Of a DNA stretch of 64,000 bases, positions 10,392-28,994 are shown one piece after another. The notes beneath the pieces were generated by a model. It was not told the origin of the DNA and searched no databases. It saw only the letters and a list, made by a program, of their open reading frames with translations. The position numbers and the translations under genes are program-made. Each line of letters begins with the position of its first letter. Positions within the stretch are counted from its first letter, which is position 1. The stretch is from a virus, in the IMG/VR virus record IMGVR_UViG_3300005253_000031, positions 26,883-90,882 of that record; one strand, given 5' to 3'.

Positions 10392-11425
10392 TACAGCGGC
10401 TCCTCTGTGAATATTGTTTCATCGATCTGACTGTCGTTGGTCTCAACCAGCATCGTAAGCTCCTCTACATCAGCCGGATTCTCCTCGAAGTGCTCCCGCA
10501 ACTTAGCAGCCCCGTGAATGGTCTTTCCCTTCCAATGGGCATATCCACCCTTTCCAACGGGTATGATGTTCAAGTCCTTGGCCAGCTCCAACAGTCCAAC
10601 GAGAGTATCAATAGTCCCTGTAAACATAAACGGAAACTGGCACTCCTGCTCGGGCGGGGCCAGCTTATTCTTAATAGTACGTATATTCAAGTTATAGCCT
10701 ACCTTGCGGCCGTTATCCTCTACCCAGCCCGCTCGTCGAACCTTCAAGATGTACGAGGCGTAGAACTTCTGAGCCCGACCTCCAGGTATCTCGTCCGGGC
10801 TTCCATACACTATACCCAACTTGCTGCGTAGCTGGTTAGTACAGAGGATAAAGCTATCCCAGTTCCGGTTAGTCAGTTGCGCCAATCCTTCGCCAACCTT
10901 GCGAGCGTGCAAACCCATGACGTCCTTTTCCTCCAAGTCATGCTCCAGTCGGTACACGGGCACCAAGGCAGCTAAACTATCTATACCTATAAAATCCATG
11001 CCGTTCGCCGCCCAGTCGCAAGCTAGATCAAACGCCTGCTCGGTACTGGTGGGCCTAACCACAAGTAGTTCCGAGGTGTTCACTCCAGTCTTCTCGAACC
11101 ACTCGGCATCAAATGTCTTCTCGGGATCAATAAATCCGCAAACATAACCCTTTTGCTGAAAGGCCCTAATGGTCCATTGCATTATCAGAGTCTTCCCCAT
11201 TGACGCCTCACCAATCACCATTCCCATACGGCCTCGACGCCAGCCCCCCGCCAGTATGTCGTCCAGTCCCGGGATGTCGGTCTCAATGGTCTCCATATGA
11301 AGCTTGGGATCATCCCCCATTAGGCCCCGCTTCGCTCCAACTCGCGCCTTTGTAATATCCATAAGCTTGGCTCGACGTTCTGAGGCAGTGTCTAAAAGCT
11401 CGGATTCATCTTTCTTTCTACTCAT
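10391..11425 (-). CDS. recA: RecA-family recombinase
   Basis: GEASMGKT Walker A, FIDPEKTFD, IDSLAALVP, NQLRSKLGIVYGSPDEIPGGRAQKFYAS, KNKLAPP. Confidence 0.95.
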   Translation of the reverse strand: MSRKKDESELLDTASERRAKLMDITKARVGAKRGLMGDDPKLHMETIETDIPGLDDILAGGWRRGRMGMVIGEASMGKTLIMQWTIRAFQQKGYVCGFIDPEKTFDAEWFEKTGVNTSELLVVRPTSTEQAFDLACDWAANGMDFIGIDSLAALVPVYRLEHDLEEKDVMGLHARKVGEGLAQLTNRNWDSFILCTNQLRSKLGIVYGSPDEIPGGRAQKFYASYILKVRRAGWVEDNGRKVGYNLNIRTIKNKLAPPEQECQFPFMFTGTIDTLVGLLELAKDLNIIPVGKGGYAHWKGKTIHGAAKLREHFEENPADVEELTMLVETNDSQIDETIFTEEPL

Positions 11426-13407
11426 GCAGCTATCACCTCGATTTTCCTAGGCTCAGCCCAGCTAGGCTCTCCGATAGATACCTCAACGGGCAGGAATGTA
11501 CCAATCTGGCGTTCCTCCATAATACGCTTTAACTCCGGAATCACGAACTCCTCCTCCTCGTAGGGCACCTCAAAGATTATCTCGTCGTGCACCTGGACCA
11601 ACATTCGTGTCTTCAACCCATTCTCTAACAACCAGTCTCGAGCGGCCACCATACGGTTCTTAACGATGTCAGCACTGGAACCCTGTACTAAGTAGTTCAC
11701 TCCAATGTAGGCTCTGTCGGGATCAATCCAATAACGACGACCAAAGCGGTTCTTTATCCATCCGCGCACTTCCACGGTTTTACACACTAAGTCAATGAAG
11801 GTGTACGCCTTCGGAAAACGGGAGAAGTATTCCGCTTTATAGGTCTTGGCTTCCTCCAGCGTCTTCTGGATCTGAGAAGCCAGCTTTTTCATCCCGATGC
11901 CGTAGATCAATCCGAAGTTAATTGCCTTGGCCAGAGTACGATAGAAGGCCCATAAGTCACTACTCTCATCTACACTCCATACCGTCTTAGCGACGTGGCT
12001 GTGAAAGTCAAACTTCGGATCTTCTAACAAAGCCGACAATCCCTCGTCCTTAATGTAGTCGGAGAAAACCCGCATTTCCATCTGGCTGTAGTCAATCAAG
12101 ACCATCCTGCATCCCTCTCGAGGAATATACAGTCTACGAACTGAGACCAAGGCATCGTTAGCGTTATCGAACTTACTGCCTATGGCTTTTGTGCCCCCAT
12201 AAGTGAGTCCACCTGCCATGCTTCCCCCAACCTTCGTCATGTCCACGCCTTCCTTAGCTCCCATCGCCGCGGACAACGCTGCAAGCACCTCATCCGAGGT
12301 ATCATTACCACTTAAGTTGGAAATGTTCTTAGCAACGTTTTGCAAGTTGGGGTCCGAACACGCTAAGCGTCCAGTAACAGTACCCCAATTCTTAAATGAC
12401 GGATGCACCGCCCCGGGCCACTCTAGGATAGGCTCAAAGTAGGAGTTTAACAGCTTCTTAGTTCCCCTATACTCCAGTATCAATCCGGCGACGGGATGGT
12501 CTATAGCCATCATAGCGCCAACACCCCAGGACGGGGCCCCTGTCTTTATGGACTTAACGGTGGACTTCAATCCAAGATTTGCCATAACGTCGCCGAGTTG
12601 CTTCGAGCTACCAATGTTGAACGTAGTGTCCGTTTCGCGGTAAATATCCTGTTCAAGTTCCTTAATGCGCTCTCCCAGGGGCCCCACTTTGGACTCGGCG
12701 TATTCTTTGTCATAAGCGATTCCCAAGGACTCCATTTCCCATAGAGTCCGCGTCAACTCCTGCTCCTGCTCCCATATGTAGACTTGATTCGTATCCTCAA
12801 TCCGCTGTTCATAAATGTCAAGTAGGTCCTCAGCATACCCGCAATCATCTTCACAGTATGGCGCTATCTTGTCTATGGGAGCATAGTCAAAATGCTTGCT
12901 CCACTTGTTCTTCCTAAGATACGCCTTAAACTCCGCGTCATACGCCGCCTTATCCTCCCCCAGAAGCATCGCAGTCTGCCCCTTCAATGACAGGTCCGAA
13001 TACTTATCCTTGTTGCACATCCGCGCAGCCACTATTACGTCAATCAACTGGTGGTCTTCACGGGGACGAAATCCATCCTGCCACATCATGGCTAGATCAA
13101 ACTTGAGGTTCCATCCTATCAGCTTAGGTACCTTGTCGAACGCCTCCCATAGAGCTGGAAGCGTAACCAGTTCGAGGTTTTCCGCTACCAACTCATGCTC
13201 CGAGTCCTTGGCCCCGTTGCGATGTCGGTACGGAATATAGTACGACTTGAGATCTTCGCCCTCATGCCAAGCCAGTCCAATGCCGCAGAGTCGATCCTGC
13301 TTCCAGGGCTCTAGACCCGTGGTTTCCGTATCAATGACTACTCGCGGTTGTTGCGCTACTTCAACTAGAAGTTCCTGTAGCTCGACGGCGGTTTTAATAA
13401 CTGCCAT
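11422..13407 (-). CDS. polA: Family A DNA polymerase with 3'-5' exonuclease
   Basis: DTETTGL (ExoI), NLKFD (ExoII), TVTGRLACSDPNLQN, DYSQMEMRV (motif A), KAINFGLIYG (motif B), VHDE (motif C). Confidence 0.95.
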   Translation of the reverse strand: MAVIKTAVELQELLVEVAQQPRVVIDTETTGLEPWKQDRLCGIGLAWHEGEDLKSYYIPYRHRNGAKDSEHELVAENLELVTLPALWEAFDKVPKLIGWNLKFDLAMMWQDGFRPREDHQLIDVIVAARMCNKDKYSDLSLKGQTAMLLGEDKAAYDAEFKAYLRKNKWSKHFDYAPIDKIAPYCEDDCGYAEDLLDIYEQRIEDTNQVYIWEQEQELTRTLWEMESLGIAYDKEYAESKVGPLGERIKELEQDIYRETDTTFNIGSSKQLGDVMANLGLKSTVKSIKTGAPSWGVGAMMAIDHPVAGLILEYRGTKKLLNSYFEPILEWPGAVHPSFKNWGTVTGRLACSDPNLQNVAKNISNLSGNDTSDEVLAALSAAMGAKEGVDMTKVGGSMAGGLTYGGTKAIGSKFDNANDALVSVRRLYIPREGCRMVLIDYSQMEMRVFSDYIKDEGLSALLEDPKFDFHSHVAKTVWSVDESSDLWAFYRTLAKAINFGLIYGIGMKKLASQIQKTLEEAKTYKAEYFSRFPKAYTFIDLVCKTVEVRGWIKNRFGRRYWIDPDRAYIGVNYLVQGSSADIVKNRMVAARDWLLENGLKTRMLVQVHDEIIFEVPYEEEEFVIPELKRIMEERQIGTFLPVEVSIGEPSWAEPRKIEVIAA

Positions 13408-13813
13408 ATACTTTATCCCTTATCTCCGCGATACTGTCGTTTATATGCTGTTCAGTATTAACTATGTGAATCTGTTGTATGGCGGTATAACGGGTAAAAT
13501 ACTGGCCAAATAGATAATCTGCCCGGGACAAATCCTCCACATTATCATCATCCTTAAGTCTACAACGCTCCAACGCTGTCTCCGAACTACATCTCAACCA
13601 GACAACGTGGACGTCGTGCTCAACCATAATGGCCCTATTCATTACCTCATAGTCCACGTTCGTTCTGCTGTACAGTTGATTGTAGACCCAACAGGACGGG
13701 GTAAATCTCGCCACAGATAAGTCCGCATAGTTGGATAGCTTTCCCACTGGATGCAGCAAAGCGGTTTTCCCTGCTCCCGAGATGCCCTCCAAGATAATGA
13801 ACTTAGGCTTCAT
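13394..13813 (-). CDS. P-loop nucleoside monophosphate kinase (dNMP kinase-like)
   Basis: IILEGISGAGKT; ARFTPSCWVY in place of DRxxxS; lid-like ALERCRLK. Confidence 0.75.
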   Translation of the reverse strand: MKPKFIILEGISGAGKTALLHPVGKLSNYADLSVARFTPSCWVYNQLYSRTNVDYEVMNRAIMVEHDVHVVWLRCSSETALERCRLKDDDNVEDLSRADYLFGQYFTRYTAIQQIHIVNTEQHINDSIAEIRDKVYGSY

Positions 13814-14721
13814 AGGTTAACTCCTACGTTCCCACGGAATTTGTAATACTCCGTCAACGTAATGCGATCCCGTGCTTCCCACTCCGGATAAAAGCGCAGT
13901 AACTTCCTGTAGTCATGCCGCTGGTTTTGCTTGTAGTCTACGTCGAGGAGAAACCTCAGGCGACCATCAACAGCGATTATCTCATCTCGAGAAACGTCTA
14001 TGAAGCGTTGATTGTGCATGGCCCCAACGGTAATCCGGGAGCCCCAGGCAGGCTTCTCAATGATACGCTGCATCAGCCACACAAAGTCCGAGATATGCGT
14101 GTAGTCCTTAATCCACTGGGGATCAATCCGCGCCTCACAACTGGGAAAATCCCTGTCATTCAGCAACTTAACCAGCAAGTCGGGAATTGACTCCGAGCGG
14201 TTAGCTGCAAACGTTCCAATGTTTCCGTAGAGGAACACGGGCTCAATGGTCATGTACTTTCCAACACACTGCGCCTCCAGTAAATGCAGTTGTAGCATTT
14301 TAGTTATCCCGTAGGTTGTCTTAGGAGCCATCAGCGAATACTCGTCAATAGGCTTTGTACTTACATCCGAGTGATAGTACGCCGTTGTCCCAAAGTGAAT
14401 GAGGGGCGTCTGCGACTCGTTAGCCACCTTAATCACATTTCTCATCCCGGTGACGTTACTGCGGATGGCGCTCTCTACGTCCTGGTCCACGTAGTCGGAG
14501 CCCTTGCGTGCCGCCAAGTGAATGATCAAGTCGGGAGAGGTCTCAAACACAGTTTCAGATAGTTCCTCATAGTCAGCCACATCTACCGTAGCTCCGTTGT
14601 CGTACTCGCTCTGCCACCCCCCCGTATTAAACTCAGGGACTATGTCATATCCGACCCCTCTGAGATACCTACTCAGGTTCGTGCCAATAAAGCCGTGAAT
14701 CCCTGTAATGAAGATCTTCAT
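13810..14721 (-). CDS. NAD-dependent nucleotide-sugar epimerase/dehydratase (extended SDR)
   Basis: MKIFITGIHGFIG Rossmann motif, IIHLAA, YGITK (YxxxK), DYTHISD; start at 14721 behind GGAGG. Confidence 0.9.
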   Translation of the reverse strand: MKIFITGIHGFIGTNLSRYLRGVGYDIVPEFNTGGWQSEYDNGATVDVADYEELSETVFETSPDLIIHLAARKGSDYVDQDVESAIRSNVTGMRNVIKVANESQTPLIHFGTTAYYHSDVSTKPIDEYSLMAPKTTYGITKMLQLHLLEAQCVGKYMTIEPVFLYGNIGTFAANRSESIPDLLVKLLNDRDFPSCEARIDPQWIKDYTHISDFVWLMQRIIEKPAWGSRITVGAMHNQRFIDVSRDEIIAVDGRLRFLLDVDYKQNQRHDYRKLLRFYPEWEARDRITLTEYYKFRGNVGVNL

Positions 14722-14741
14722 GTTCCCTCCGTATGTATACA

Positions 14742-15161
14742 TTATATCGTCAAATACAGATGCCACGACCCAATTGTGGCCTCCAAGCAGTCCGCGCCAT
14801 ATCTCGCTGCTATCCTCCCCAGGAACCCAATGTCGCTGGGAAACCGCTTGAGATCTGATGAGCGGATATAGGCCAGCATTGTGGTTTGCGACGGGCGAAC
14901 CAGTAGCTGCATCATCGTGATGCAATCATGCGGGGAACTCCATGCCATATAGGCTTTGCGCGTTCCAGTTCCCCCATAAGACGTCTCTCGAAATACAGCG
15001 TCTCGGAACTGCTTTTCCTTCCGGTCGTAATACTCCGTCTCATCGTCTAAAACCGTATTTAGAGCAACACGTTCTATCTCTGACTTGTTCAGTGTTATGA
15101 CGTTGTTTCCAACGTGCTCTAGTACCAGTTTATCGGCGGAATCCCACTCTACTGACCACAT
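14742..15161 (-). CDS. Minimal thymidylate-synthase-fold enzyme, predicted dCMP-specific
   Basis: RKAY...HDCITMMQ (catalytic Cys), YIRSSD, FPSD (Asp at the position of TS Asn177), IGSWHLY. Confidence 0.75.
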   Translation of the reverse strand: MWSVEWDSADKLVLEHVGNNVITLNKSEIERVALNTVLDDETEYYDRKEKQFRDAVFRETSYGGTGTRKAYMAWSSPHDCITMMQLLVRPSQTTMLAYIRSSDLKRFPSDIGFLGRIAARYGADCLEATIGSWHLYLTI

Positions 15162-16130
15162 CTAGTCCTCCAGGAAGTAGGCTCGATCGCTCGAGTCCAA
15201 CTGGGCCAACGTTATCTCGGGGTCCGGCATCTCTTCGTTGCCCCGGGGAATGTGCATACCCAACTGGCCCATGATGGTCTCGCGATCCGTACAGGCTGTG
15301 TTAAACGTGTACTTGTCTCCAGTCTGCTCGCAGGGCCAACGTCCGGAACACTGGAACAAGTTGTGAAACGACTCCCCTATTTGATCCCCATGCTCCAAAC
15401 AGCGTCGAGCATGGTCGCTTGCCGGGCGCAGGTATGACGCCAACAGTGGGAAGCGAATCCTAATCTCACGCCTCATTAGCCATGCCGTGGCCACCGTATC
15501 TGCTTGCTCCGAAAACATGAGACGCTTGGACATGAAGTTCTGTAACGCCATGTAGTTGATGCCCATACTCCAGCGATGGCATGCGCTTATGGGCAGTACA
15601 GCCCGTGCATCCTGCCAGTTGGACTGGCCCGTCGCCAGCTCATCGACGTAGGCATCCTTAGCTACCTTACACGCCTGCATGAAACGTATGAGTCGATCCC
15701 CGTCCTGGTAAATGCTCTCCGGAACGCGGAACCCTATATTGCTGTGGTTGTTGTCCCGCCAGCCCATGGATCCAAACACCGCCCCAATCCTAGCGCGTGC
15801 AATCTGATCAAAGGCGCTGCGCGACGGCCCCGCTATCTCAAATGTAAAGCTGGGAGCTTCCATAGCGTTAGGCAGAGACTTACGATTTAACACCGCCTTA
15901 ACCACAAACAGCCTTGCCTCCGGCTCTGCTTCAGCCCACTTGTAGGTTTGGTACACTCCACCCCATGTAGACGTTGCAATGGTAAACATAGCCTTGTAAG
16001 GATTAGCCGGCCAGTCAATCAACCGGACGTCTATGTCCTCGACCCCCCGATGAAACTCGGTATCCGTATCGGGGGCCTCTTGGGGCATGGTCTTAATCCA
16101 CTCTCGTAACGCCCTGTCTTCCTCATTCAT
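15162..16130 (-). CDS. ThyX-like flavoprotein with non-canonical active site
   Basis: E.PSFTFEIAGPSRSAFDQIARAR, QDARAVLP, INYMALQNFMSKR; RHR motif is RAR; start MNEEDR at 16130. Confidence 0.8.
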   Translation of the reverse strand: MNEEDRALREWIKTMPQEAPDTDTEFHRGVEDIDVRLIDWPANPYKAMFTIATSTWGGVYQTYKWAEAEPEARLFVVKAVLNRKSLPNAMEAPSFTFEIAGPSRSAFDQIARARIGAVFGSMGWRDNNHSNIGFRVPESIYQDGDRLIRFMQACKVAKDAYVDELATGQSNWQDARAVLPISACHRWSMGINYMALQNFMSKRLMFSEQADTVATAWLMRREIRIRFPLLASYLRPASDHARRCLEHGDQIGESFHNLFQCSGRWPCEQTGDKYTFNTACTDRETIMGQLGMHIPRGNEEMPDPEITLAQLDSSDRAYFLED

Positions 16131-16260
16131 AGAACGTTTCTCCCTTCTCGGCCCTCTTAAACTGCTTACAGTCGCACTCTTTGCACTCTCCGGAGTATTC
16201 AACGTGAGTTCGACGTCTCTCCCCGCAGGTGCATATGTGATATCGTCCTCGTCTACTCAT
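16123..16260 (-). CDS. Small Zn-finger protein
   Basis: MSRRGRYHICTCGERRRTH...CKECDCKQF. Confidence 0.5.
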   Translation of the reverse strand: MSRRGRYHICTCGERRRTHVEYSGECKECDCKQFKRAEKGETFYE

Positions 16261-16273
16261 TGAGACTTCTCTC

Positions 16274-16615
16274 CTATATACTGAAGGATGTTCCGCATCC
16301 ACACATAGTTTTCGCATTGGGATTGTTGAAAATGAAACCCCTACCGTTTAAGCCCTCAGAATACTCTAGCGTAGTACCCGCCAAAAAGACATAGGACTTC
16401 TTATCAATGTATAAATTAACACTATGTCCCCGTATAACCTTGTCATCTGGGAGCGGAATCTCAGCGAGTTCAAGAACATACGTGAGACCAGCACATCCAC
16501 CACCCTTGACTCCAACTCGTAGATGGGCGTTGGGTTTTCCCTCCACCTCTCTAAACTGTTGAACACGGGCACTTGCCTCTTCGCTAATTGTAATCGTTAA
16601 AGGCTCAGGCATCAT
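16274..16615 (-). CDS. iscA: A-type Fe-S cluster carrier (IscA/HesB family)
   Basis: LRVGVKGGGCAGLTY and FNNPNAKTMCGCGTSF; ATG overlaps the upstream stop (ATGA). Confidence 0.93.
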   Translation of the reverse strand: MMPEPLTITISEEASARVQQFREVEGKPNAHLRVGVKGGGCAGLTYVLELAEIPLPDDKVIRGHSVNLYIDKKSYVFLAGTTLEYSEGLNGRGFIFNNPNAKTMCGCGTSFSI

Positions 16616-17601
16616 ACTGCTCCTATAGGTGAATCGTTGGGTCCCGTCGCATATCGCGTGTCGTCCCACTTCTTCAGTTTCTCATGACGTTCCCTAATAT
16701 ACGCAGTCACCTCACGGAGGTCTGTCTCCTGGGTAACGTAGAAGGCTGCTATACCCTGACTGCGAAAATCCGAGACGATTCCCTCATTGTCGTCAATCAC
16801 CACGTCAACCTTGGGCAGTATGTCCTTTAGATACACGAGCTTATCCGCCACGTCGACACAGTGTAGGTAATCGTACTCCAGGTTGTTAATCTCGAGCCAG
16901 ACCATGGTATCGTAAAACAGAGATGGATAGGTTTTCACCGGGCGGTTGGTAGCTATCACCACGAAGTAGTCTAGCTTCTGCAAAGTAAACAGTAGGTCCT
17001 TGGCATACGCCCGTACCCCCAAACGTCTCTTAGCCCCAGAGCGTCTGTATTCGTCTTTCCACTCTCCCCAAACCAGGGGCCTCTCTTGTTTAGCCGCAAG
17101 TATCTTGCGTATGTCCTCGTCCGGATATTCCTTCAACACCCACTCTCGGAAACAGTTGGGATACGTGTTCAGTACCCCGTCAATATCTACAACCGCAACT
17201 TTGGTAGCAGCTAGCAGTTGGTCGTGTACCTCCCCCTTCTCCTGTTTCCATCGAAAGTCAACTACCTTGGACTTCTCGACAAAAGCATTGTGTAGCTCTC
17301 CCTTTGAGATGCTCCACTGCTGCATCCAACCCCAGAGAAACTTCTGTAGGTCTACGAACTCCTCCATCATGGCGGCTCGATTGAACCCCGTCTTGGCCAC
17401 ACGGTGACGCTTCCAGTTGAACGTATTGAGAACCTCCGGAATCTCGCCCACTATTTGAAGCGCATACTCCTTGGACTCCTCTACACGTTCAGAGTCTTCC
17501 AACAAAGCAAGAGACTTCCCGTTAAAGTGCATACACACCATCTCGGCGAACTTTTGCTGTAGGTCCCACAGATCATTTAGATTTTCACTCACAGCAACCA
17601 C
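16612..17601 (-). CDS. Fusion of all-alpha (dimeric dUTPase/dCTPase-like) NTP pyrophosphatase and HAD 5'-nucleotidase-like domain
   Basis: N-terminal GEIPEVLNTFNWKRH...EEFVDLQKF; C-terminal VVDIDGVL, ATNRP, K, VIDD HAD motifs. Confidence 0.82.
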   Translation of the reverse strand: MVAVSENLNDLWDLQQKFAEMVCMHFNGKSLALLEDSERVEESKEYALQIVGEIPEVLNTFNWKRHRVAKTGFNRAAMMEEFVDLQKFLWGWMQQWSISKGELHNAFVEKSKVVDFRWKQEKGEVHDQLLAATKVAVVDIDGVLNTYPNCFREWVLKEYPDEDIRKILAAKQERPLVWGEWKDEYRRSGAKRRLGVRAYAKDLLFTLQKLDYFVVIATNRPVKTYPSLFYDTMVWLEINNLEYDYLHCVDVADKLVYLKDILPKVDVVIDDNEGIVSDFRSQGIAAFYVTQETDLREVTAYIRERHEKLKKWDDTRYATGPNDSPIGAV

Positions 17602-18368
17602 TCCAATACTCGATCATATACCATATGCGTCAAAATAGTTTTATCCCAAGCCCCGTATCGACCGGTAAACAGGAGACGCTCACTGTGTGCTGGTATGTTC
17701 CGACGACCCACCACTTTGGTAACCTCGAAGTAGTTATACTCAGGTCGCCGAACGGGAATATAGCCTGCCCTATACTCCATAGTAAATGTGCCCCAGATTG
17801 CCGAGCACCTGTACCAGTCACAATGCTCGTTTATGTTATACAAAATCCAGGCCTCGCCGTCAGGGGCTTTACCGCCCCTAATCCAAAGCGTAGCGGACTC
17901 GTAGTCCAATCCGGAGTAGAGGTGATGTAATGGAATGGTTGATATCACCCTATCGTACTCCCGCAGTAACTCCCCTATGTCGTGTAAATCCTCTATAGCT
18001 TTAGTCTGTACTTGCTTCCCGTACAAATCCCAAAGCATGTTGATGGCTGTTCCTGCATTGTATCCCTGTATCTCCGGAACCTGCCTGGGCCCCAGCACAC
18101 TGTTCTTTACCGACGGGATGCCATACACCTTTTGGCCATAAGCCAACGCCACATTCCTACTCAACATGCCCTCAGCACCCAACAGCCGTTGCTGAATTGA
18201 CGTAGGCGTTAATGGAAGGTTGCACGAGGCGTGTAGAAAAAACACTCCCGCGTTACGCTTACTCTTGTTAGGGTCGGCATCAAAGATATCTACGTAATTC
18301 CCACACTCCGACGCTGCGTGTGCTGCCATCATCCCAGACGGGCCTGCACCCAGTATGGCTATCCGCAT
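17589..18368 (-). CDS. FAD-dependent oxidoreductase, UDP-galactopyranose-mutase-like
   Basis: IAILGAGPSG dinucleotide fold, YDRVISTIPL, C-terminal FTGRYGAW (compare GRLAEY/GRFG of the UGM family). Confidence 0.7.
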   Translation of the reverse strand: MRIAILGAGPSGMMAAHAASECGNYVDIFDADPNKSKRNAGVFFLHASCNLPLTPTSIQQRLLGAEGMLSRNVALAYGQKVYGIPSVKNSVLGPRQVPEIQGYNAGTAINMLWDLYGKQVQTKAIEDLHDIGELLREYDRVISTIPLHHLYSGLDYESATLWIRGGKAPDGEAWILYNINEHCDWYRCSAIWGTFTMEYRAGYIPVRRPEYNYFEVTKVVGRRNIPAHSERLLFTGRYGAWDKTILTHMVYDRVLEWLL

Positions 18369-19258
18369 ATCTCAACCGCCTTCCTCAGATTTTCCGCGTA
18401 ACCCAATACGTCATTCGCGTGAAACCGTCGCATGTATTGAGGGTGCCATACCCCCGCGCTCCTAACGTCATAAGCTGCGAGAGCCGCCATAGCCTTTCCT
18501 CCTAAAGCCACTACTTTCGGATATCCTAATGCCGCCCACTTATCGTATAGCGGGTAAGGAACACCATCGTCGTCATAGGCGTTGCTCACGTGCACTCTAT
18601 CCCAATTGAACCCCGCCACCTTAAACGCCTTAAATAGGTGCTTGCCGCAACCCCCAGAAAGCGTGGTGTTCGGCAGGAAATTCTTGTCCTTGAGGTTGTG
18701 CTGCTCTCCCACAAACCACACCTCCGGCATTACGGTTCCCATGCCATCATCAGTAATAGTCACCGGCTCATACGTAATAAAGTTACGAATTCTGTCTACC
18801 ATCACGTTAAGATCTGCGCTCCTCACTAGGGTCTTAGTCAAATGAGAAAACTCAAAACCATAACGCAGAAACTGGCTAACGCCCCTCCAATCCACCACAC
18901 CTCGATACCTCTCCTGAAAACGGTCGAGCGTATGTTGATTATGGCCATCTAACAGGAACAGGTAGGCGTCATGAGCTCGTAGCCAACCCTCTAACACCCA
19001 AATCTCGAACTGAGTAAGTCCTTCCTCACCGCGAACCAACGGGCCATAGGCCAACTCGCTCAAGTGTAAGCGGTCTACAACTACGTTCATATCTGGAAAA
19101 TCTACGAGAGCCTGTTGCATCTGAGACAGCCACTCAAATAGACGGTTTTTAGCGATGTGCGGAAAGTGCAGAGACCTCCCGCCGTCCAGTTCTACCAACC
19201 GCTGGGCGATGGTGGACTTACCAATCCCGTCGATACCTTCAAGGATGATTATCGCCAT
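18359..19258 (-). CDS. Fusion of thymidylate-kinase-like dNMP kinase and uracil-DNA-glycosylase-superfamily domain
   Basis: ILEGIDGIGKST, VVDRLHLSELAYG; then VWFVGEQHN, VHVSNA, KVVALGGKA, VWHPQY. Confidence 0.78.
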   Translation of the reverse strand: MAIIILEGIDGIGKSTIAQRLVELDGGRSLHFPHIAKNRLFEWLSQMQQALVDFPDMNVVVDRLHLSELAYGPLVRGEEGLTQFEIWVLEGWLRAHDAYLFLLDGHNQHTLDRFQERYRGVVDWRGVSQFLRYGFEFSHLTKTLVRSADLNVMVDRIRNFITYEPVTITDDGMGTVMPEVWFVGEQHNLKDKNFLPNTTLSGGCGKHLFKAFKVAGFNWDRVHVSNAYDDDGVPYPLYDKWAALGYPKVVALGGKAMAALAAYDVRSAGVWHPQYMRRFHANDVLGYAENLRKAVEICG

Positions 19259-19621: not shown

Positions 19622-20449
19622 TTACCAGGGAAGATCGTTTGGGTTTAGCTCATCCTTGGTTTCTACCCCAAGATCCTCAGAGGGCAGGTCTACCACGGAA
19701 CCTGGTGACTCAACCACCGTTCCACCCAGGGTTTCAATCCGCCCCGATCCGATATCCTCAAGGTCGGGTAGCTCAGCAACTTGAGCTAGAAACTCCTGCT
19801 CAATATCGCTTACCGTAGCTGCATCTAATTCTCTAGTGATTTTCTGGGTTCCCTTGGCCCCGTAGCGAGTGATGACGTAATCTCGATCCATAAGGGTTCC
19901 GTACTCCTCAATTTTTCCCAGCATCTTTCGGGCCATGTAGAATCCGTCCTGCCAAACAACGAACTCGTTAACCTCTTCCTTGTATCTCTTGGCGGCTGCG
20001 CCTAACGTCACTCCTTGCCACTTACCCTCAGCATCCGGCCTTGTGTGATATATGGCATAAAGATATACCCACGCCATAAACTGGGTACTGCGAGGTATCT
20101 CTGTCGTACATGCCTCACACTCTCCTGAAAGCTCGAAGGTGTCAGAATCTTCCACCAGCGTACACAAGCGAGAAACGAAAAACTGCTTGCCTCCCTGAGA
20201 GTGTTTTTCAATTCGATGAAACTCCCCGTTCAAAATCTCAACAGTTGATCCGTGCTCCGCTGCATACTTGTCAATATGCTCGGGCTCGGGGCCCCATTGA
20301 CCCATAGAGGTAACTACTCGAATTTTAGCCTTGTCTCCATCATCTCGAAGAATCAAGCGAGGAATGAAACGCCCGCCCTCACCCATGAACTCTGTATTCG
20401 AGTCAAACTTCTTTTGTGCAGATCCAAATCCCCTTCGTACAGCGGTCAT
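19622..20449 (-). CDS. Single-stranded DNA-binding protein (gp32-like)
   Basis: H...C...CxxC Zn ligands, DRDYVITRYG, acidic tail ending DLPW; replication context. Confidence 0.65.
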   Translation of the reverse strand: MTAVRRGFGSAQKKFDSNTEFMGEGGRFIPRLILRDDGDKAKIRVVTSMGQWGPEPEHIDKYAAEHGSTVEILNGEFHRIEKHSQGGKQFFVSRLCTLVEDSDTFELSGECEACTTEIPRSTQFMAWVYLYAIYHTRPDAEGKWQGVTLGAAAKRYKEEVNEFVVWQDGFYMARKMLGKIEEYGTLMDRDYVITRYGAKGTQKITRELDAATVSDIEQEFLAQVAELPDLEDIGSGRIETLGGTVVESPGSVVDLPSEDLGVETKDELNPNDLPW

Positions 20450-21027
20450 ACCTTCTCTCCTATTACTTCCAGTCTCAGTCCACAACTATAATCTGTGGTG
20501 TTTCTCAAGACAGCTATTCTCTTTTTCGCGCGATAACGTACTCTTTTCAACGCTTTCTCATCTACCTCGTAGGCCTTCGCTGTAGATGCCAGTGACATGA
20601 AATCCATTCTCCCCAACATATAGGGAATCTCCAAATCCTGAAATCCCAAGATCTCCAATTGAAGCTCAAGGGAGTCATCCACGGTCTTACATAGCTTGCC
20701 CATATCTCGAGATAATGGGCCGTCCTCCTCATCACCGTCAAACATAACATCCATGGACAGCCCTTTCTTCTCTGGGCCGTAATGCCTGTTTGCATATTCG
20801 GTGAGAGTGGTGATTTTGTTCCAACAGGCCCTATGGAAGAACGTATGAAACGTTACCCCCCGCTCGGGATCATACTTTTGCAGGCATTTAAGCAATATCA
20901 ACTTTAGCTCTTGTTCCAGGTCTTCCCGCTCCATATAGGGAACGTGCACTTTATAGGACATGCTTATTAGCTTAGGTGTCCACTGCTTAACAGCTTCTTC
21001 AAATTGTGCGTCCGAAACGGTGCTCAT
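20446..21027 (-). CDS. RNA polymerase sigma factor (sigma70 family, region 2 plus region 4-like HTH)
   Basis: EREDLEQELKLILLKCLQKYDPERGVTFHTFFHRACWNKI; C-terminal HTH and RVRYRAKKRI. Confidence 0.82.
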   Translation of the reverse strand: MSTVSDAQFEEAVKQWTPKLISMSYKVHVPYMEREDLEQELKLILLKCLQKYDPERGVTFHTFFHRACWNKITTLTEYANRHYGPEKKGLSMDVMFDGDEEDGPLSRDMGKLCKTVDDSLELQLEILGFQDLEIPYMLGRMDFMSLASTAKAYEVDEKALKRVRYRAKKRIAVLRNTTDYSCGLRLEVIGEKV

Positions 21028-25028: not shown

Positions 25029-25478
25029 CTACTCTTCTTCCTCCTCAGTAAGGACCGGGAAGTATACCGCTGGGGTATAGTCAACTTCTGACGTAGCTTC
25101 CTTCAGTTCCTCCTCAGTAATCCGCCCCTGAATTCGAGCCTCCTCAAACTTGGCGGTGTTGAGGACATAGGTAGTAATCTTATCGCAAATGTTTTGAAAG
25201 CGCTTAATCCCGATAACGTCTCGCAGTTTCCCCTCGATAACCTCTCCGCCCTTCTTCGTAATCCGACGATCAAACATCTTCTTCAGTGTGGGTAGAGGAA
25301 GTATCACTCGTTGGTTTTTCCCGCCCAGCTTGTCGCTAATGTCGTTGATCTGCTTCTTGATTTCCTTCTTCCGTTTGTCCCCCATTTTCCCGGATTGATC
25401 AATGAGATCATACTCCTCCCCCAACTGCTCCAAGAGAGCTACATACTCAGACAGTGCATCCATGTTAATCCTTACCAT
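25029..25478 (-). CDS. Hypothetical protein
   Basis: ORF track; SD upstream. Confidence 0.5.
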   Translation of the reverse strand: MVRINMDALSEYVALLEQLGEEYDLIDQSGKMGDKRKKEIKKQINDISDKLGGKNQRVILPLPTLKKMFDRRITKKGGEVIEGKLRDVIGIKRFQNICDKITTYVLNTAKFEEARIQGRITEEELKEATSEVDYTPAVYFPVLTEEEEE

Positions 25479-26410
25479 GGTAGATCCTCCGCTTCCGGGT
25501 CGATTGCCCCAAGGTTACTTAAGTTATTATGCTTCGCCAAGATCTCTTCGATCCAGTCATTAGGTGGGTCGTTGAACTGGGTGATATCCGTTGGTGCGTC
25601 AGTGCTGTGATACTCACCATCCATTGAACCCGCGATGTATTCGTTAATCTCCTCCTCAGTCAGGAACTCCAACTTGGTCTCTGGGCCCAATGAGGTCGTC
25701 ATGGTCTTCTTCGCGGGCCACAACTGACTTGGAATCTCCTCTCCCGCATACGTGTATATCAAGCGCTGTTGGGCAAAGGTTTCAATAGCCTCGTCACAAT
25801 GCCTCAAGCGGGTTTCGGTGATCGCTTTTGCGGCCGACAGTCCCTCCATCTTGATTAAGATGCCTGCTACTACAGTTCCGGTTCTACCGTGCGCTCCCAT
25901 GCAGCCAATATCAACATGCTTGCCCTCTTTGAGATACTGCACTGCTAAGTCAATTATGCCTGCATAACGCGCATCATCTATAGTTCCAAAGTCCTTCCAC
26001 ACCACGATGTAAAACTGTGCGGGACTCTCCGAATGAGATGCAACCCCAGTAAGTCCGGGAGTCACCATATCCTCTTGAAGGAACTCCCCCCACTTGGCAT
26101 CTAGATAAATACCCAGATCCGGATCGGAGTATGGCTTTTTGTCAGCGCGTAACAAGCCACTAACTGTGAGATTATACTCTCCTACAGCCACCTCGTCCTG
26201 CCAGTGGTGGCATACGGGCTTGGGTACGTAGTTAGTCTTTTTCCCAGCTTTGCCTGTATAGACATAACCCCCCACAGTTATAGCCTTGGTCGTATTCTTC
26301 TCATAGTCTTCGGAAATCGACGTTCCCCATATCTCTTCGTATGTCTTGTAAGATGCAGCCTGCACGACCTGCTTTTCCCTTCGCGCCCTGCGTCTACTAG
26401 CTCTGCTCAT
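25472..26410 (-). CDS. Cys-dependent (CX5R) dual-specificity/tyrosine phosphatase-like protein
   Basis: WKDFG acid loop, HVDIGCMGAHGRTG P-loop, AIETFAQ Q-loop; start MSRASRR at 26410. Confidence 0.85.
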   Translation of the reverse strand: MSRASRRRARREKQVVQAASYKTYEEIWGTSISEDYEKNTTKAITVGGYVYTGKAGKKTNYVPKPVCHHWQDEVAVGEYNLTVSGLLRADKKPYSDPDLGIYLDAKWGEFLQEDMVTPGLTGVASHSESPAQFYIVVWKDFGTIDDARYAGIIDLAVQYLKEGKHVDIGCMGAHGRTGTVVAGILIKMEGLSAAKAITETRLRHCDEAIETFAQQRLIYTYAGEEIPSQLWPAKKTMTTSLGPETKLEFLTEEEINEYIAGSMDGEYHSTDAPTDITQFNDPPNDWIEEILAKHNNLSNLGAIDPEAEDLPW

Positions 26411-28994
26411 CAAATCCACCTTCCCCAAAATACTGACGCTGAAGTGTGCTAGTTTCCGGCTCCAAGACTTCAATGTTTTTAAGCCTAAATCCATGCTTCT
26501 CTCCATTCACCATCACCTCTACAAATAGTCCGTCCCGCTTGAAGGTTTTTAGATTTATGACTTTACCCACCAAGCCCCGTATCTTTATGTTACGGGCTTT
26601 ATCCGAGATGCGTACGGTTTTCCACAGGATGCTTTCAGAAGCTTTTACCCATACATCCCTAACCACCTCAAGGCCCATAATCTCTACATTGGTTTCGTCG
26701 AGATCTTCACACAGTGAAAACATGTCCGCCACATTCTTAGAAGAATGCTTCAACAGGGAACCAAACTTTCCGTGTAGCTTCCAGTCCAGTATGAGGTCCA
26801 ACTTCGTCAGATTCCATCCGTAGTGGATACCTCCGTGATACTGAATCTTGTTAAACATGCAGCCAGAATTGTGCTGGAGGTCAAACGCAAGGTCAACGAA
26901 TGTAACTGCATTGATTTCCCCCACTAGGAAATGATGAAGCAACTCCGCCCCATTGGCCCACTTCTCGCCCCCAAAGGAGCCTGTAAACTGGTCGGGATCA
27001 TTAAAGGCATCCCGTAAGTCTAACAGCAATCCTACTCCTAGGGTTTGTCTAAGGATTCTCCACTCCTTGCGGGCTAGATTACGGCTACCCCTTAGGAGCC
27101 CCCTGTAACCCGTTCTACTATGTCGGGCTTCTCCCCCGCAGGCAGCATCTAAATAGATAGCCAGGTCCTTGGCGACCACCTCGGCGAACTGTTCTAACAC
27201 GGGTTTAAGTTCAGGATTTATCCTAGCAGATTCAGACAGCAGGTAGAAATCTGCGGCAATCTTGGTGGTATCCAGGTTTATCTCTAACTCGGGCCACCAG
27301 TATTTGGTTTCGGACTGTGGCACGGGCTTTGTAGTCTCCTGGATGTTGGAGCGTAAACTGAGCCCAATGTTAAACTTGATATTCAGCTTTATCCCGCTAA
27401 GACCCAACTCCTCATGCCATTCCTTGATGGTAGCAGTGAAGAAGTTATCGCCGGCTGGCTCTACCTCCAACTCTCCGCTATAGACGAGCCCAGCATCTCC
27501 ATCTACAGTGACTAACGTACCATCCTGTAGTGTCTGCCCCGACTGCGTTCGGATAATCTTTTTACCGGGCTCAAATTCTTCAAAAATCCATTCAGAGATA
27601 CCAACCACACAAGGCTTGTTTTCTCCCCTTGCAACCACCGCTGCGTGACAAGTAGTTCCACCGGTTCCCGTAGCAAACCCTTCAGCCCCCAACATGTAGC
27701 GAACATCATTGGGTGTGGTCATCTCACGGGCTAATATGTAAGGTTTACTCGCTGCTATACACTCCTCTATATACCAATTTGCTATTGCCAAAACTCCTGA
27801 AACCACTCCCGTCGACGCGGCTAGTCCAGTCCCAGCGATCTTCTCGTTCCCAGTTATCTTAACAGTGGGAACATCAACTTTCCTGAGATCTAAACGAGTT
27901 ACTCGACTAGCTGCGACTTCCTTGGTTATGAGGCCCTCGGAGTGCATTTCAACAGCCATACGAATTGCAGCCTTGGAAGTACGCTTCGCCGAACGGTGTT
28001 GCAACAACCAAAGCGTTCCGCTGTCTACCGTGTACTCAATATCCTGTGCATCTCCTTGGTCCGTTTCTAGTGTTTTGGTTAGGATCATCAACTGGTCGTA
28101 TACGGGAGTGTTCCACTCTCTCAGGAAGTCCAGCGTCTTCGGTGTAGTGGTTCCCCCAACAATAGCCTCACCTTGAGCTTGCACATCAAATTCTCCGTAG
28201 GGCTTGTTTTCTCCTGTAGACGGGTCACGAGAGAACAACACACCGGAGCCGCTTTGTTCATCTCTGTTACCAAACACCATGGCCACTACAATTACCGCTG
28301 TTCCCATTTGATCATTAATTGTATTATGCGTCCGGTACTCCATCGCGTTGGGGCCCATCCAGCTATCTATAACAGTGCGAATAGCTTTGTTGAGCTGAAT
28401 GTACGGATTGTCTATTACATCCAGAGACTGCCCCCCACGTACAACTCGGTCCCGTGTCACCACCAGCAGTTCCCGCAGTTGCTCATCTGTCAACTTAGCA
28501 GCGGGCTCCAACTGTTTCTTGGCTTTGTAAAACGCCACCGGAGACTTCAACCTCTGGGAGGTCTGTCCCAAAACGGTGTTTCCGTAACGACCCAGGAACT
28601 CCACATATGTAGGAATGGAGAAACGGGGATTGCCCATACGCTTTAGGTTGCTGGGAGTGATGCCTACGTTAAGAATAGTTTCCATCATGCCGGGCATGGA
28701 AACAGGGGCCCCGCTCCGAACAGAGACCAGCAAGGGAAAACCCTCGTCCTTGCCCCCGAACGTCTGTCCTGTCTGCTTTTCCAGAGCTAGCATGGCCTCG
28801 AACAACTGCTCGTTGAAGTCCTCTATGTTTAGATCCCCCGCCATTACTACTTTGCACACGTCGGTGGTTATGATGAACCCCGGAGGTACCGGATAGCCCT
28901 TCTGCGTCATCCTAGCCAGCCCCGCACCCTTTCCACCAAGCAGCTCCACATCATCGGGGTTCGCTTCTGCAAATGTGTAGATGTATTTCGTCAT
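26397..28994 (-). CDS. PPDK-like dikinase: ATP-grasp and phospho-His swivel domain with an unrecognised C-terminal domain
   Basis: LLGGKGAGLARM, PVPPGFIITT, LLVSVRSGAPVSMPGMMETILNVG, MVFGN, AQGE, QDIEYT, GGTTCHAAVVARG; no PEP/pyruvate TIM-barrel motifs after about aa 510. Confidence 0.85.
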   Translation of the reverse strand: MTKYIYTFAEANPDDVELLGGKGAGLARMTQKGYPVPPGFIITTDVCKVVMAGDLNIEDFNEQLFEAMLALEKQTGQTFGGKDEGFPLLVSVRSGAPVSMPGMMETILNVGITPSNLKRMGNPRFSIPTYVEFLGRYGNTVLGQTSQRLKSPVAFYKAKKQLEPAAKLTDEQLRELLVVTRDRVVRGGQSLDVIDNPYIQLNKAIRTVIDSWMGPNAMEYRTHNTINDQMGTAVIVVAMVFGNRDEQSGSGVLFSRDPSTGENKPYGEFDVQAQGEAIVGGTTTPKTLDFLREWNTPVYDQLMILTKTLETDQGDAQDIEYTVDSGTLWLLQHRSAKRTSKAAIRMAVEMHSEGLITKEVAASRVTRLDLRKVDVPTVKITGNEKIAGTGLAASTGVVSGVLAIANWYIEECIAASKPYILAREMTTPNDVRYMLGAEGFATGTGGTTCHAAVVARGENKPCVVGISEWIFEEFEPGKKIIRTQSGQTLQDGTLVTVDGDAGLVYSGELEVEPAGDNFFTATIKEWHEELGLSGIKLNIKFNIGLSLRSNIQETTKPVPQSETKYWWPELEINLDTTKIAADFYLLSESARINPELKPVLEQFAEVVAKDLAIYLDAACGGEARHSRTGYRGLLRGSRNLARKEWRILRQTLGVGLLLDLRDAFNDPDQFTGSFGGEKWANGAELLHHFLVGEINAVTFVDLAFDLQHNSGCMFNKIQYHGGIHYGWNLTKLDLILDWKLHGKFGSLLKHSSKNVADMFSLCEDLDETNVEIMGLEVVRDVWVKASESILWKTVRISDKARNIKIRGLVGKVINLKTFKRDGLFVEVMVNGEKHGFRLKNIEVLEPETSTLQRQYFGEGGFDEQS

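Follow-up and report, generated by a model that had tools for sequence, protein, structure and literature searches.

The window analysed here, 64,000 nucleotides in length, is the final 64 kb of IMGVR_UViG_3300005253_000031, a complete 90,882-bp virus record of IMG/VR with direct terminal repeats. The system in question is a cluster of nine genes located within its replication module, which had been interpreted, in an original prediction made from the sequence alone, as a pathway for a sugar-modified cytosine built at the nucleotide level. All of the genes surrounding the cluster are located on the minus strand, and the gene order of the replication module is RNase H, DnaB, primase and sigma factor, followed by the nine genes, PolA and RecA. 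The nine co-oriented genes, designated g9 to g1 in the direction of reading, lie immediately upstream of PolA, and most of them overlap. The products are described below using the abbreviations SDR (short-chain dehydrogenase/reductase), TS (thymidylate synthase), UGM (UDP-galactopyranose mutase), UDG (uracil-DNA glycosylase) and ORF (open reading frame).

PolA, 11422..13407 (-), family A DNA polymerase with a 3'-5' exonuclease domain (PF00476, 2.4e-78; PF01612; PHROG 17)
g1, 13394..13813 (-), short TMPK-like P-loop nucleotide kinase (PHROG 761, 2e-11)
g2, 13810..14721 (-), extended SDR with the NAD(P)-binding motif TGxxGxxG and a T/Y/K catalytic triad (PF01370, 3e-25; PF04321, 4e-18)
g3, 14742..15161 (-), minimal TS-fold protein of 139 aa, with catalytic Cys80 and with Asp110 at the Asn177 position
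g4, 15162..16130 (-), ThyX-fold flavoprotein with a remodelled signature and a Cys-rich C-terminal extension of ~85 aa; core member of the module
g5, 16123..16260 (-), Cys-rich ORF of 45 aa with the pattern CxC...CxxCxC, known from its sequence only
g6, 16274..16615 (-), IscA/ErpA-type Fe-S carrier (TIGR00049, 1.9e-33; PF01521, 1.7e-17)
g7, 16612..17601 (-), all-alpha dimeric dUTPase/MazG-type dNTP pyrophosphatase joined to an NT5C-type HAD 5'-deoxynucleotidase; core member
g8, 17589..18368 (-), truncated GR2-type FAD flavoprotein with a fold nearest to UGM; core member
g9, 18359..19258 (-), TMPK/YorR-like kinase (~residues 1-125) followed by a UDG-superfamily-like domain (~residues 140-299)

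Stops and starts overlap or abut across the cluster, including an ATGA overlap at the g6/g7 junction and GTGA overlaps, and the start of PolA, which lies directly downstream of g1, overlaps the end of that gene. This tight packing suggests that the nine genes probably form a single transcription unit terminating at PolA. The predicted run of nine contiguous genes adjoining PolA was thus found on the minus strand at the coordinates listed, and gene-by-gene domain checks agreed with the inventory that had been drawn up.

Related loci were collected by a profile scan of IMG/VR with an alignment of the ThyX-like protein, which yielded 69 loci (a single-protein scan with g4 gave no match), and these were analysed by iterative HMM searches of six-frame ORFs and by gene maps. 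Unless stated otherwise, counts refer to the 35 distinct loci with full context, namely at least 8 kb on either side of the ThyX-like gene; since every locus was ascertained via this gene, the figures of 35/35 are biased. The families of g7 and g8 were each found in 35/35 loci and matches to the kinase profile in 34/35 (a profile contaminated by fusion proteins). The SDR occurs in 23/35, and the minimal TS-fold protein, hereafter the mini-TS, in 28/35; all these genes share the strand of the ThyX-like gene. The g8 gene is followed directly by g7 in 29 of the 35 loci. In seven loci the kinase is fused to the mini-TS, and it is these fusions that contaminate the kinase profile; upon recount, a P-loop was present in 30 of the 50 loci having any kinase-profile match. 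Depending on the lineage, the module adjoins PolA, PolIII-alpha or PolB. The joint recurrence of the same gene families in dozens of viral contigs that are independent of one another puts the arrangement far beyond chance, and co-occurrence in related phages, against which the original prediction was to be checked, is observed throughout for g4, g7 and g8 and in part of the loci for the mini-TS and the SDR. Further neighbours include dCMP deaminase (16 loci), a separate trimeric dUTPase, ribonucleotide reductase (RNR), and GroEL with GroES.

Neither the ThyX-like nor the flavoprotein family has a carrier among 50,697 cultured phage records. The 7.9-kb region gave no near or distant match in cultured phages, where g4 retrieved canonical ThyX proteins alone, with partial coverage. 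In a survey of prokaryotes comprising one genome for each of 185,579 species, five contigs of metagenome-assembled genomes carry the family; these are short and come from unrelated phyla and are therefore probably misbinned viral DNA, so that the module is probably restricted to viruses.

The product of g3 has no match to PF00303, nor has any protein of the genome at E<=1, and its identification, like that of g8, required family profiles and models; single-sequence searches of the PDB with g3, g8 and g9 returned noise, apart from a YorR lead. An exhaustive profile-free search produced relatives of g3 in 47 clusters, most of them of 127-171 aa, and two long multi-repeat proteins were excluded from the family set. 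Residues Y45, R68, C80, R100, S101, D110, S132 and H134 are invariant among 43 representatives and the homologues from the loci. Of these, C80 and R100/S101 correspond to the catalytic C146 and phosphate-binding R166/S167 of Escherichia coli ThyA, and HMMER aligns them to C148 and R168/S169 of T4 dCMP hydroxymethylase. The latter enzyme is also the best sequence match of the family profile in the PDB, with three collinear pieces spanning the Cys, the RS(x)D motif and the GSxH(x)Y motif. The predicted model of g3 (pLDDT 96) has the TS alpha/beta fold, its structural matches belong exclusively to the TS superfamily, and all 139 residues are aligned onto residues 14-212 of the 264 residues of ThyA, where the protein stops. 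As modelled, g3 is a TS core without the C-terminal segment, and does not have the full-length TS architecture in which this segment binds folate. The C-terminal segment of TS contributes to closing the folate site.

Asp110 of g3 lies within P-S-D-I-G, equivalent to P-F-N177-I-A of ThyA, and is invariant in the family. An Asp at the Asn177 position of ThyA is an established marker of dCMP specificity, and all characterised TS homologues with this Asp act on (d)CMP, giving a modified base (PMC13326640). By this residue g3 falls into the dCMP-specific branch of the superfamily, and the invariant Asp together with the retained catalytic Cys and Arg/Ser residues lends support to the proposal that the TS-fold enzyme would act on dCMP. 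The mark of 5-hydroxy-dCMP synthases according to Lee et al. is an Asn at the position of ThyA Asp169 (PMC13326640). This position is occupied in the window g3 by Asp (D103, within RSSD), so that the D169N substitution is lacking, by Asn in the L038, L036, L021, L022, L059 and L069 groups, and by H, E or S in others. A second TS-like paralogue of 221-254 aa is located directly upstream of the ThyX-like gene in three loci (L016:9294-9956, L048:9231-9992 and L015:9036-9791); it passes the cut-off of Pfam Thymidylat_synt in L016 and L048 and has Asp at the Asn177 position in all three, which therefore carry two dCMP-type TS-fold genes.

The g4 protein exceeds the gathering cut-off of PF02511 (66.4 bits against 24.8; 68.1 bits in the genome-level search) and scores below the equivalog cut-off of TIGR02170 (47.9 bits against 87.9). 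The family profile matches the ThyX proteins of Mycobacterium tuberculosis (3gwc) and T. maritima (1kq4) at 8e-8, and its 129 homologues are metagenomic without exception. The signature of g4 reads RARIGAVFGSMGWRD and departs from the canonical RHRx7-8S: compared with M. tuberculosis ThyX, His96 is replaced by Ala (RHR to RAR), Ser105 by an invariant Gly, and Tyr108 by a near-invariant Asp, while Arg is invariant or nearly so at the positions of R87, R95, R97, R107, R172 and R199. The C-terminal tail of ~85 residues contains at least four Cys. The changed signature, the sub-equivalog score and the added Cys-rich tail agree with the earlier description of this ThyX as altered.

Phages of the PolIII-alpha/GroEL type (L038:9953-11483 and ~30 similar loci, the L031-L070 group) encode two tandem ThyX-like paralogues of ~275 and ~246 aa. 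The first is devoid of the DQ..RAR motif and the Cys tail, and the second of the N-terminal part; these complementary losses, as read from the alignments, suggest a hetero-oligomeric ThyX-like enzyme. Some other homologues are unusually long (452-496 aa in L010, L028 and L030) or contain intein/Hint domains (PF07591, PF14890; e.g. P0088). Genes of GIY-YIG/NUMOD3 homing endonucleases occur within the module in L019 (10970-11707) and also in L059, where the gene is located between the two ThyX-like halves.

The g7 product matches PHROG 415/420 and has itself no Pfam match; its homologue in L017 exceeds the Pfam cut-offs for both dUTPase_2 and NT5C, and the family profile finds dimeric dUTPases (6e-6) and a 5'(3')-deoxyribonucleotidase (3bwv, 2e-4) in the PDB. 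Residues D139/D141 (DxD), K182, R220, P221 and D271 are invariant in the family, and the metal-binding and DxD motifs are intact. Through the homologue and the family profile, g7 is thus assigned to the class combining dUTPase_2 and NT5C domains with a DxD nucleophile motif. The preferred substrates of NT5C enzymes are dUMP and dTMP. In the L038 group a distinct trimeric dUTPase is encoded beside g7, which argues that g7 is not a housekeeping dUTPase and is counted in favour of a role in modification.

The g8 flavoprotein comprises 259 aa versus ~370-500 aa for UGMs, so that about one third of a UGM is lacking; it has no match to the GLF family of Pfam and not the three-domain architecture of UGMs (at least ~370 aa). 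In the structure search UGMs are at the top, with PPOX and DAAO within 1-2 Z units. The membership of g2 in the extended SDRs is indicated by PF01370 and the invariant T/Y/K triad, and all NCBIfam equivalogs remain far under their cut-offs. Its family profile finds as the best PDB match the dTDP-4-dehydrorhamnose reductase RmlD (4.6e-29), with GalE at ~1e-19 or weaker, and g2 reaches 38 bits against the cut-off of 262 of TIGR01179 (GalE). The enzyme that had been taken for an NDP-sugar epimerase is therefore not of the GalE type and is closest to the RmlD reductase.

Of the two kinases, g1 matches TIGR00041 at 7e-10, under the cut-off of that model. The kinase part of g9 matches the thymidylate kinases of PHROG 761 (9e-13), its best PDB match is YorR (2axp), and it has weak similarity to the RB69 gp45 kinase (E 0.003). 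The C-terminal half of g9 may resemble the UDG superfamily, a lead that comes from Atlas comparisons of the predicted structure (TM 0.66-0.70 to UDG/UdgX clusters) and of features (score 0.86 to viral clusters with UDG in 18-36% of members). This domain has no match to the Pfam UDG family (PF03167), and its motif A reads GEQHN where UDG has GEAPG. No homologue of the kinase-UDG fusion was found in the 69 related loci, and the fusion is specific to this phage. The g6 IscA was absent from every one of the same 69 loci in the six-frame ORF searches. The g5 product, possibly a zinc ribbon judging by its Cys pattern, has no family match in library scans and no homologue in the 69 loci.

Sequence and structure show the TS core of g3, the kinases, the g7 fusion, the RmlD-like NAD(P)H reductase g2, and the two flavoproteins g4 and g8. 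The T4-type logic put forward in the original prediction is upheld, since the cluster adjoins the polymerase and combines dNMP kinases and a dNTP pyrophosphatase with an enzyme of the TS superfamily. The evidence as a whole inclines, with considerable room for doubt, towards a conserved module, confined to viruses, by which the pool of pyrimidine deoxynucleotides is remodelled ahead of replication according to this T4-type logic, with a cytosine-directed step and not as a sugar pathway. The g7 fusion would cleave a canonical pyrimidine dNTP to dNMP, clearing the unwanted one, and Cys80 of g3 would add to C6 of dCMP, functionalising C5 either by flavin/O2 hydroxylation, as in RB69 gp48 and HY126 AfhB, or by one-carbon transfer. 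The g8 flavoprotein and the g2 reductase might tailor the product or serve in redox supply. The g4 protein would act on dUMP, being either the sole dTMP synthase of the phage or the maker of a thymine substitute, and its Cys-rich tail may contain a metal or Fe-S site that IscA loads. The kinases would convert the modified dNMP to dNDP, from which the host nucleoside diphosphate kinase would produce the dNTP to be incorporated by PolA, its presumed consumer.

A cytosine-directed modification is favoured by the one-strand operon ending at PolA, the co-occurrence in 35/35 loci, the association with three replisome types, the conserved residues of the mini-TS, the kinase-mini-TS fusions, the presence of embedded tailoring genes as in hypermodification clusters, the restriction to viruses, and the similar neighbourhood of the published 5-hydroxycytosine clusters; a product derived from dCMP is suggested by the invariant Asp and by the fusions with the kinase. 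Other findings weigh against such a modification. The strictly universal core consists of g4, g7 and g8, while the mini-TS is missing from 7/35 loci, and the cytosine-directed step may therefore be an add-on. The IscA, g5 and the g9 kinase-UDG fusion are confined to this one phage, and the Asp at the ThyA-169 position of the window g3 means that 5-hydroxylation is not predicted for this member. The dUTPase and NT5C families of g7, the dCMP deaminase in 16 loci, and the uracil/phosphate-binding Arg residues kept in g4 also fit dTMP supply or thymine replacement. No canonical ThyA was found in this genome, and among 29 large related records it was found in one. The g4/g7/g8 trio, the family affinities of g7, the feeder enzymes, the Arg residues of g4 and the near-absence of ThyA point to dUMP/dTMP chemistry, which could be thymine replacement or the normal synthesis of dTMP by a ThyX that has diverged. 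Thymine replacement, in which the universal trio would be the real pathway and the mini-TS an accessory second modification, is considered improbable. The remodelled ThyX would turn dUMP into a non-thymine 5-substituted dUMP, e.g. by water or amine trapping of the exocyclic methylene, the UGM/DAAO-like flavoprotein would tailor it, and the dUTPase-NT5C fusion would destroy dTTP and dTMP, as happens in phages of the classical hydroxymethyluracil type. Such a pathway is consistent with the occurrence of g4, g7 and g8 in 35/35 loci versus 28/35 for the mini-TS, with the scarcity of ThyA, with the conserved changes of ThyX (His to Ala, Ser to Gly, Tyr to Asp) in a protein retaining all the phosphate/uracil-binding Arg, with the match of the g7 domains to dUTP- and dUMP/dTMP-specific families, and with dCMP deaminase (16 loci) and the trimeric dUTPase of the L038 group as dUMP feeders. 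Tailoring in the hypermodification of thymidine is known to involve a GR2 flavoprotein, NGTO (PMC11472151), and UDGs, which the g9 domain may resemble, accompany T-modified phage genomes (PMC13697223). However, the same evidence is equally expected from a divergent dTMP-synthase ThyX with its usual feeders, genes known from thymidine hypermodification, such as 5-HMUDK and aGPT-Pplase, were not seen, and the invariant Asp of the mini-TS would be left unexplained. It is tentatively proposed, as a possibility distinctly weaker than cytosine-directed modification, that the trio and the half-sized TS form a flavin-based pathway, not known before, to a new modified pyrimidine dNTP, by which thymine or even both pyrimidines might be substituted in a large set of uncultured phages; the enzyme families would then have chemistry never described before, and the g4 tail would possibly bind an Fe-S cluster.

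Still less probable than thymine replacement is an ordinary nucleotide supply, in which the genes would be a set for dNTP synthesis and salvage near the replisome, as in many lytic phages, with no modification of DNA. The assignments to the ThyX, dUTPase and TMPK families agree with such a function, as do RNR, dCMP deaminase and dUTPase adjoining the module in related phages and the position of the ThyX-like gene as the sole candidate thymidylate synthase in most genomes. Nevertheless, canonical dNTP synthesis does not call for an Asp-type (dCMP) TS-fold enzyme, the conserved UGM-like flavoprotein (35/35) and RmlD-like reductase (23/35) have no known role there, the signature residues of ThyX are altered in a conserved manner, and the embedded S-adenosylmethionine (SAM) methyltransferases, radical SAM enzymes and glycosyltransferases indicate tailoring and not supply. 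The model of the original prediction, by which the SDR and the UGM-like enzyme would make an NDP-furanose and this sugar would be attached to cytosine while it is still a free nucleotide, with the TS-fold protein as the possible catalyst, ranks last and appears very unlikely. The UGMs among the top structural matches of g8, the placement of the SDR in the superfamily of NDP-sugar enzymes, the existence of phages with glycosylated 5-hydroxycytosine (of which RL38JI encodes a UGM), and, in the L038 and L036 groups, genes of the GT4 and GT2 types at a distance of no more than ~8 kb from the module are in its favour. But the complete 90,882-bp genome has no match to four Pfam glycosyltransferase families, as had been remarked for the cluster; of the 29 large related records, 8 matched GT1 and 9 matched GT2, and a match to either family was present in only one of the 7 complete ones. 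Moreover, g8 has 259 aa, no GLF match, and nearly equal scores to PPOX and DAAO, the SDR is an RmlD-like reductase, and a sugar kinase and a nucleotidyltransferase were not found. Nothing supports the suggested transfer of a sugar by the TS-fold protein, and glycosyl transfer by a TS fold is without precedent or structural hint. The claim of a sugar-modified base is therefore not supported as the role of the conserved module, although sugars may be added in lineages L038 and L036.

The closest described system is the biosynthesis of 5-hydroxycytosine (5hoC; PMC13326640, NAR 2026). In phages RB69, DLP3, HY126 and RL38JI, TS homologues with both N177D and D169N are flavin/O2-dependent 5-hydroxy-dCMP synthases (PMC13326640; PDB 9iqu/9iqc), and the clusters encode a YorR/TMPK-like kinase, a dCTPase, an NT5C-like HAD phosphatase, NDP-sugar genes (with a true UGM in RL38JI) and DNA glycosyltransferases (PMC13326640). 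The cluster described here resembles them in having a TS-fold enzyme with the N177D marker, as judged by alignment, and a probable action at the mononucleotide level; in the neighbouring YorR/TMPK-like kinase, all-alpha pyrophosphatase, NT5C-like HAD phosphatase and polymerase-adjacent position; and in a likely involvement of flavin chemistry, which is suggested here by the flavoprotein families. Unlike the 5hoC enzymes of 217-238 aa, g3 has 139 aa, aligns to ThyA 14-212 only and lacks the C-terminal segment; the window g3 has Asp rather than the diagnostic Asn at position 169, which is present in some relatives, and the sequence similarity of g3 to RB69 gp48 is marginal (hhalign E 0.014). In contrast to the 5hoC phages, this genome is devoid of arabinose/UDP-sugar genes and glycosyltransferases, and the ThyX-like protein, the truncated UGM-like flavoprotein and the RmlD-like SDR, which are conserved partners here, are absent from 5hoC clusters. 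The view that the pathway had not been described thus requires revision as regards the TS-homologue route to 5-hydroxy-dCMP, published in 2026 (PMC13326640), but stands for this gene combination: a remodelled ThyX together with a truncated UGM-like flavoprotein and a dUTPase-HAD fusion was present in no paper or cultured phage searched.

The T4 system includes the gp56 dCTPase/dUTPase, the gp42 dCMP hydroxymethylase, td, cd and the gp1 kinase. Unlike T4, the cluster has ThyX in place of ThyA/td, a pyrophosphatase fused to a nucleotidase, TMPK-like and not gp1-like kinases, a half-sized TS-fold enzyme whose folate-binding C-terminus is probably lost, and two more conserved redox enzymes. With canonical ThyX (PF02511; 3gwc, 1kq4), g4 shares the fold, the Pfam family and the aligned Arg set, but it differs in its RAR...G signature, the Asp replacing Tyr108, the Cys-rich C-terminal domain and the splitting of the gene in PolIII-type phages. 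The g8 flavoprotein is 100-200 residues shorter than UGM and does not match GLF. A nucleotide substrate would also set it apart from NGTO (PaMx11 gp47, PDB 8Z2O), which acts on DNA and is not among the top structural matches listed for g8.

The module is widespread in environmental phages, with 129 ThyX-like homologues and 69 viral loci representing three replisome types, and has no cultured representative or characterised member. Three of its enzyme families stand out in this respect, namely the 139-aa minimal TS fold, the ThyX with a rewritten signature and the truncated UGM-like flavoprotein. Modified bases enable phages to escape restriction and CRISPR, and the enzymes that produce them are of use in sequencing and synthetic biology. 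If a new base is made, the TS-superfamily paradigm of 5-hydroxymethylcytosine, 5-hydroxymethyluracil and 5hoC would be extended, and the mini-TS could show a folate enzyme pared to its core and possibly using a different cofactor.

Additional genes are embedded in the module in particular lineages. The following loci contain lineage-specific tailoring genes:

L025:10960-11832, class I SAM methyltransferase
L028:4997-5749, embedded tailoring gene
L018:7506-9602, aldo/keto reductase and radical SAM/SPASM enzyme region

The class I SAM methyltransferase genes are located between the kinase and the mini-TS in L025 and also in L019, L037, L059 and L061, and L020 resembles L018 in having an aldo/keto reductase and a radical SAM/SPASM enzyme within the module. 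These embedded genes hint that the end products are chemically different among the lineages. In PolIII-type phages, downstream of GroES/GroEL and a PD-(D/E)XK nuclease, a DprA/SLOG-like protein is followed by two GT4-type and one GT2-type glycosyltransferases (L038:14806-20729 and L036:17109-20681), a set that is possibly a DNA glycosylation add-on. The L036 group also encodes a pyridoxal phosphate-dependent enzyme of the PALP family between RNR and the flavoprotein gene (L036:2187-3134).

Elsewhere in the window, positions 25472-28994 (-) carry a gene for an 865-aa dikinase similar to pyruvate phosphate dikinase (PPDK), with PPDK_N and PEP-utilizer mobile domains and no recognised acceptor domain, overlapping the gene for a 344-aa protein with a weak match to DSP/PTP phosphatases. 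This pair was considered as an additional member of the module and rejected, being found in no related locus. A 287-aa protein with no assigned family is encoded at 19622-20485 (-); 7-8 related loci retain it between primase and module, and it is probably a replication protein rather than a member of the pathway.

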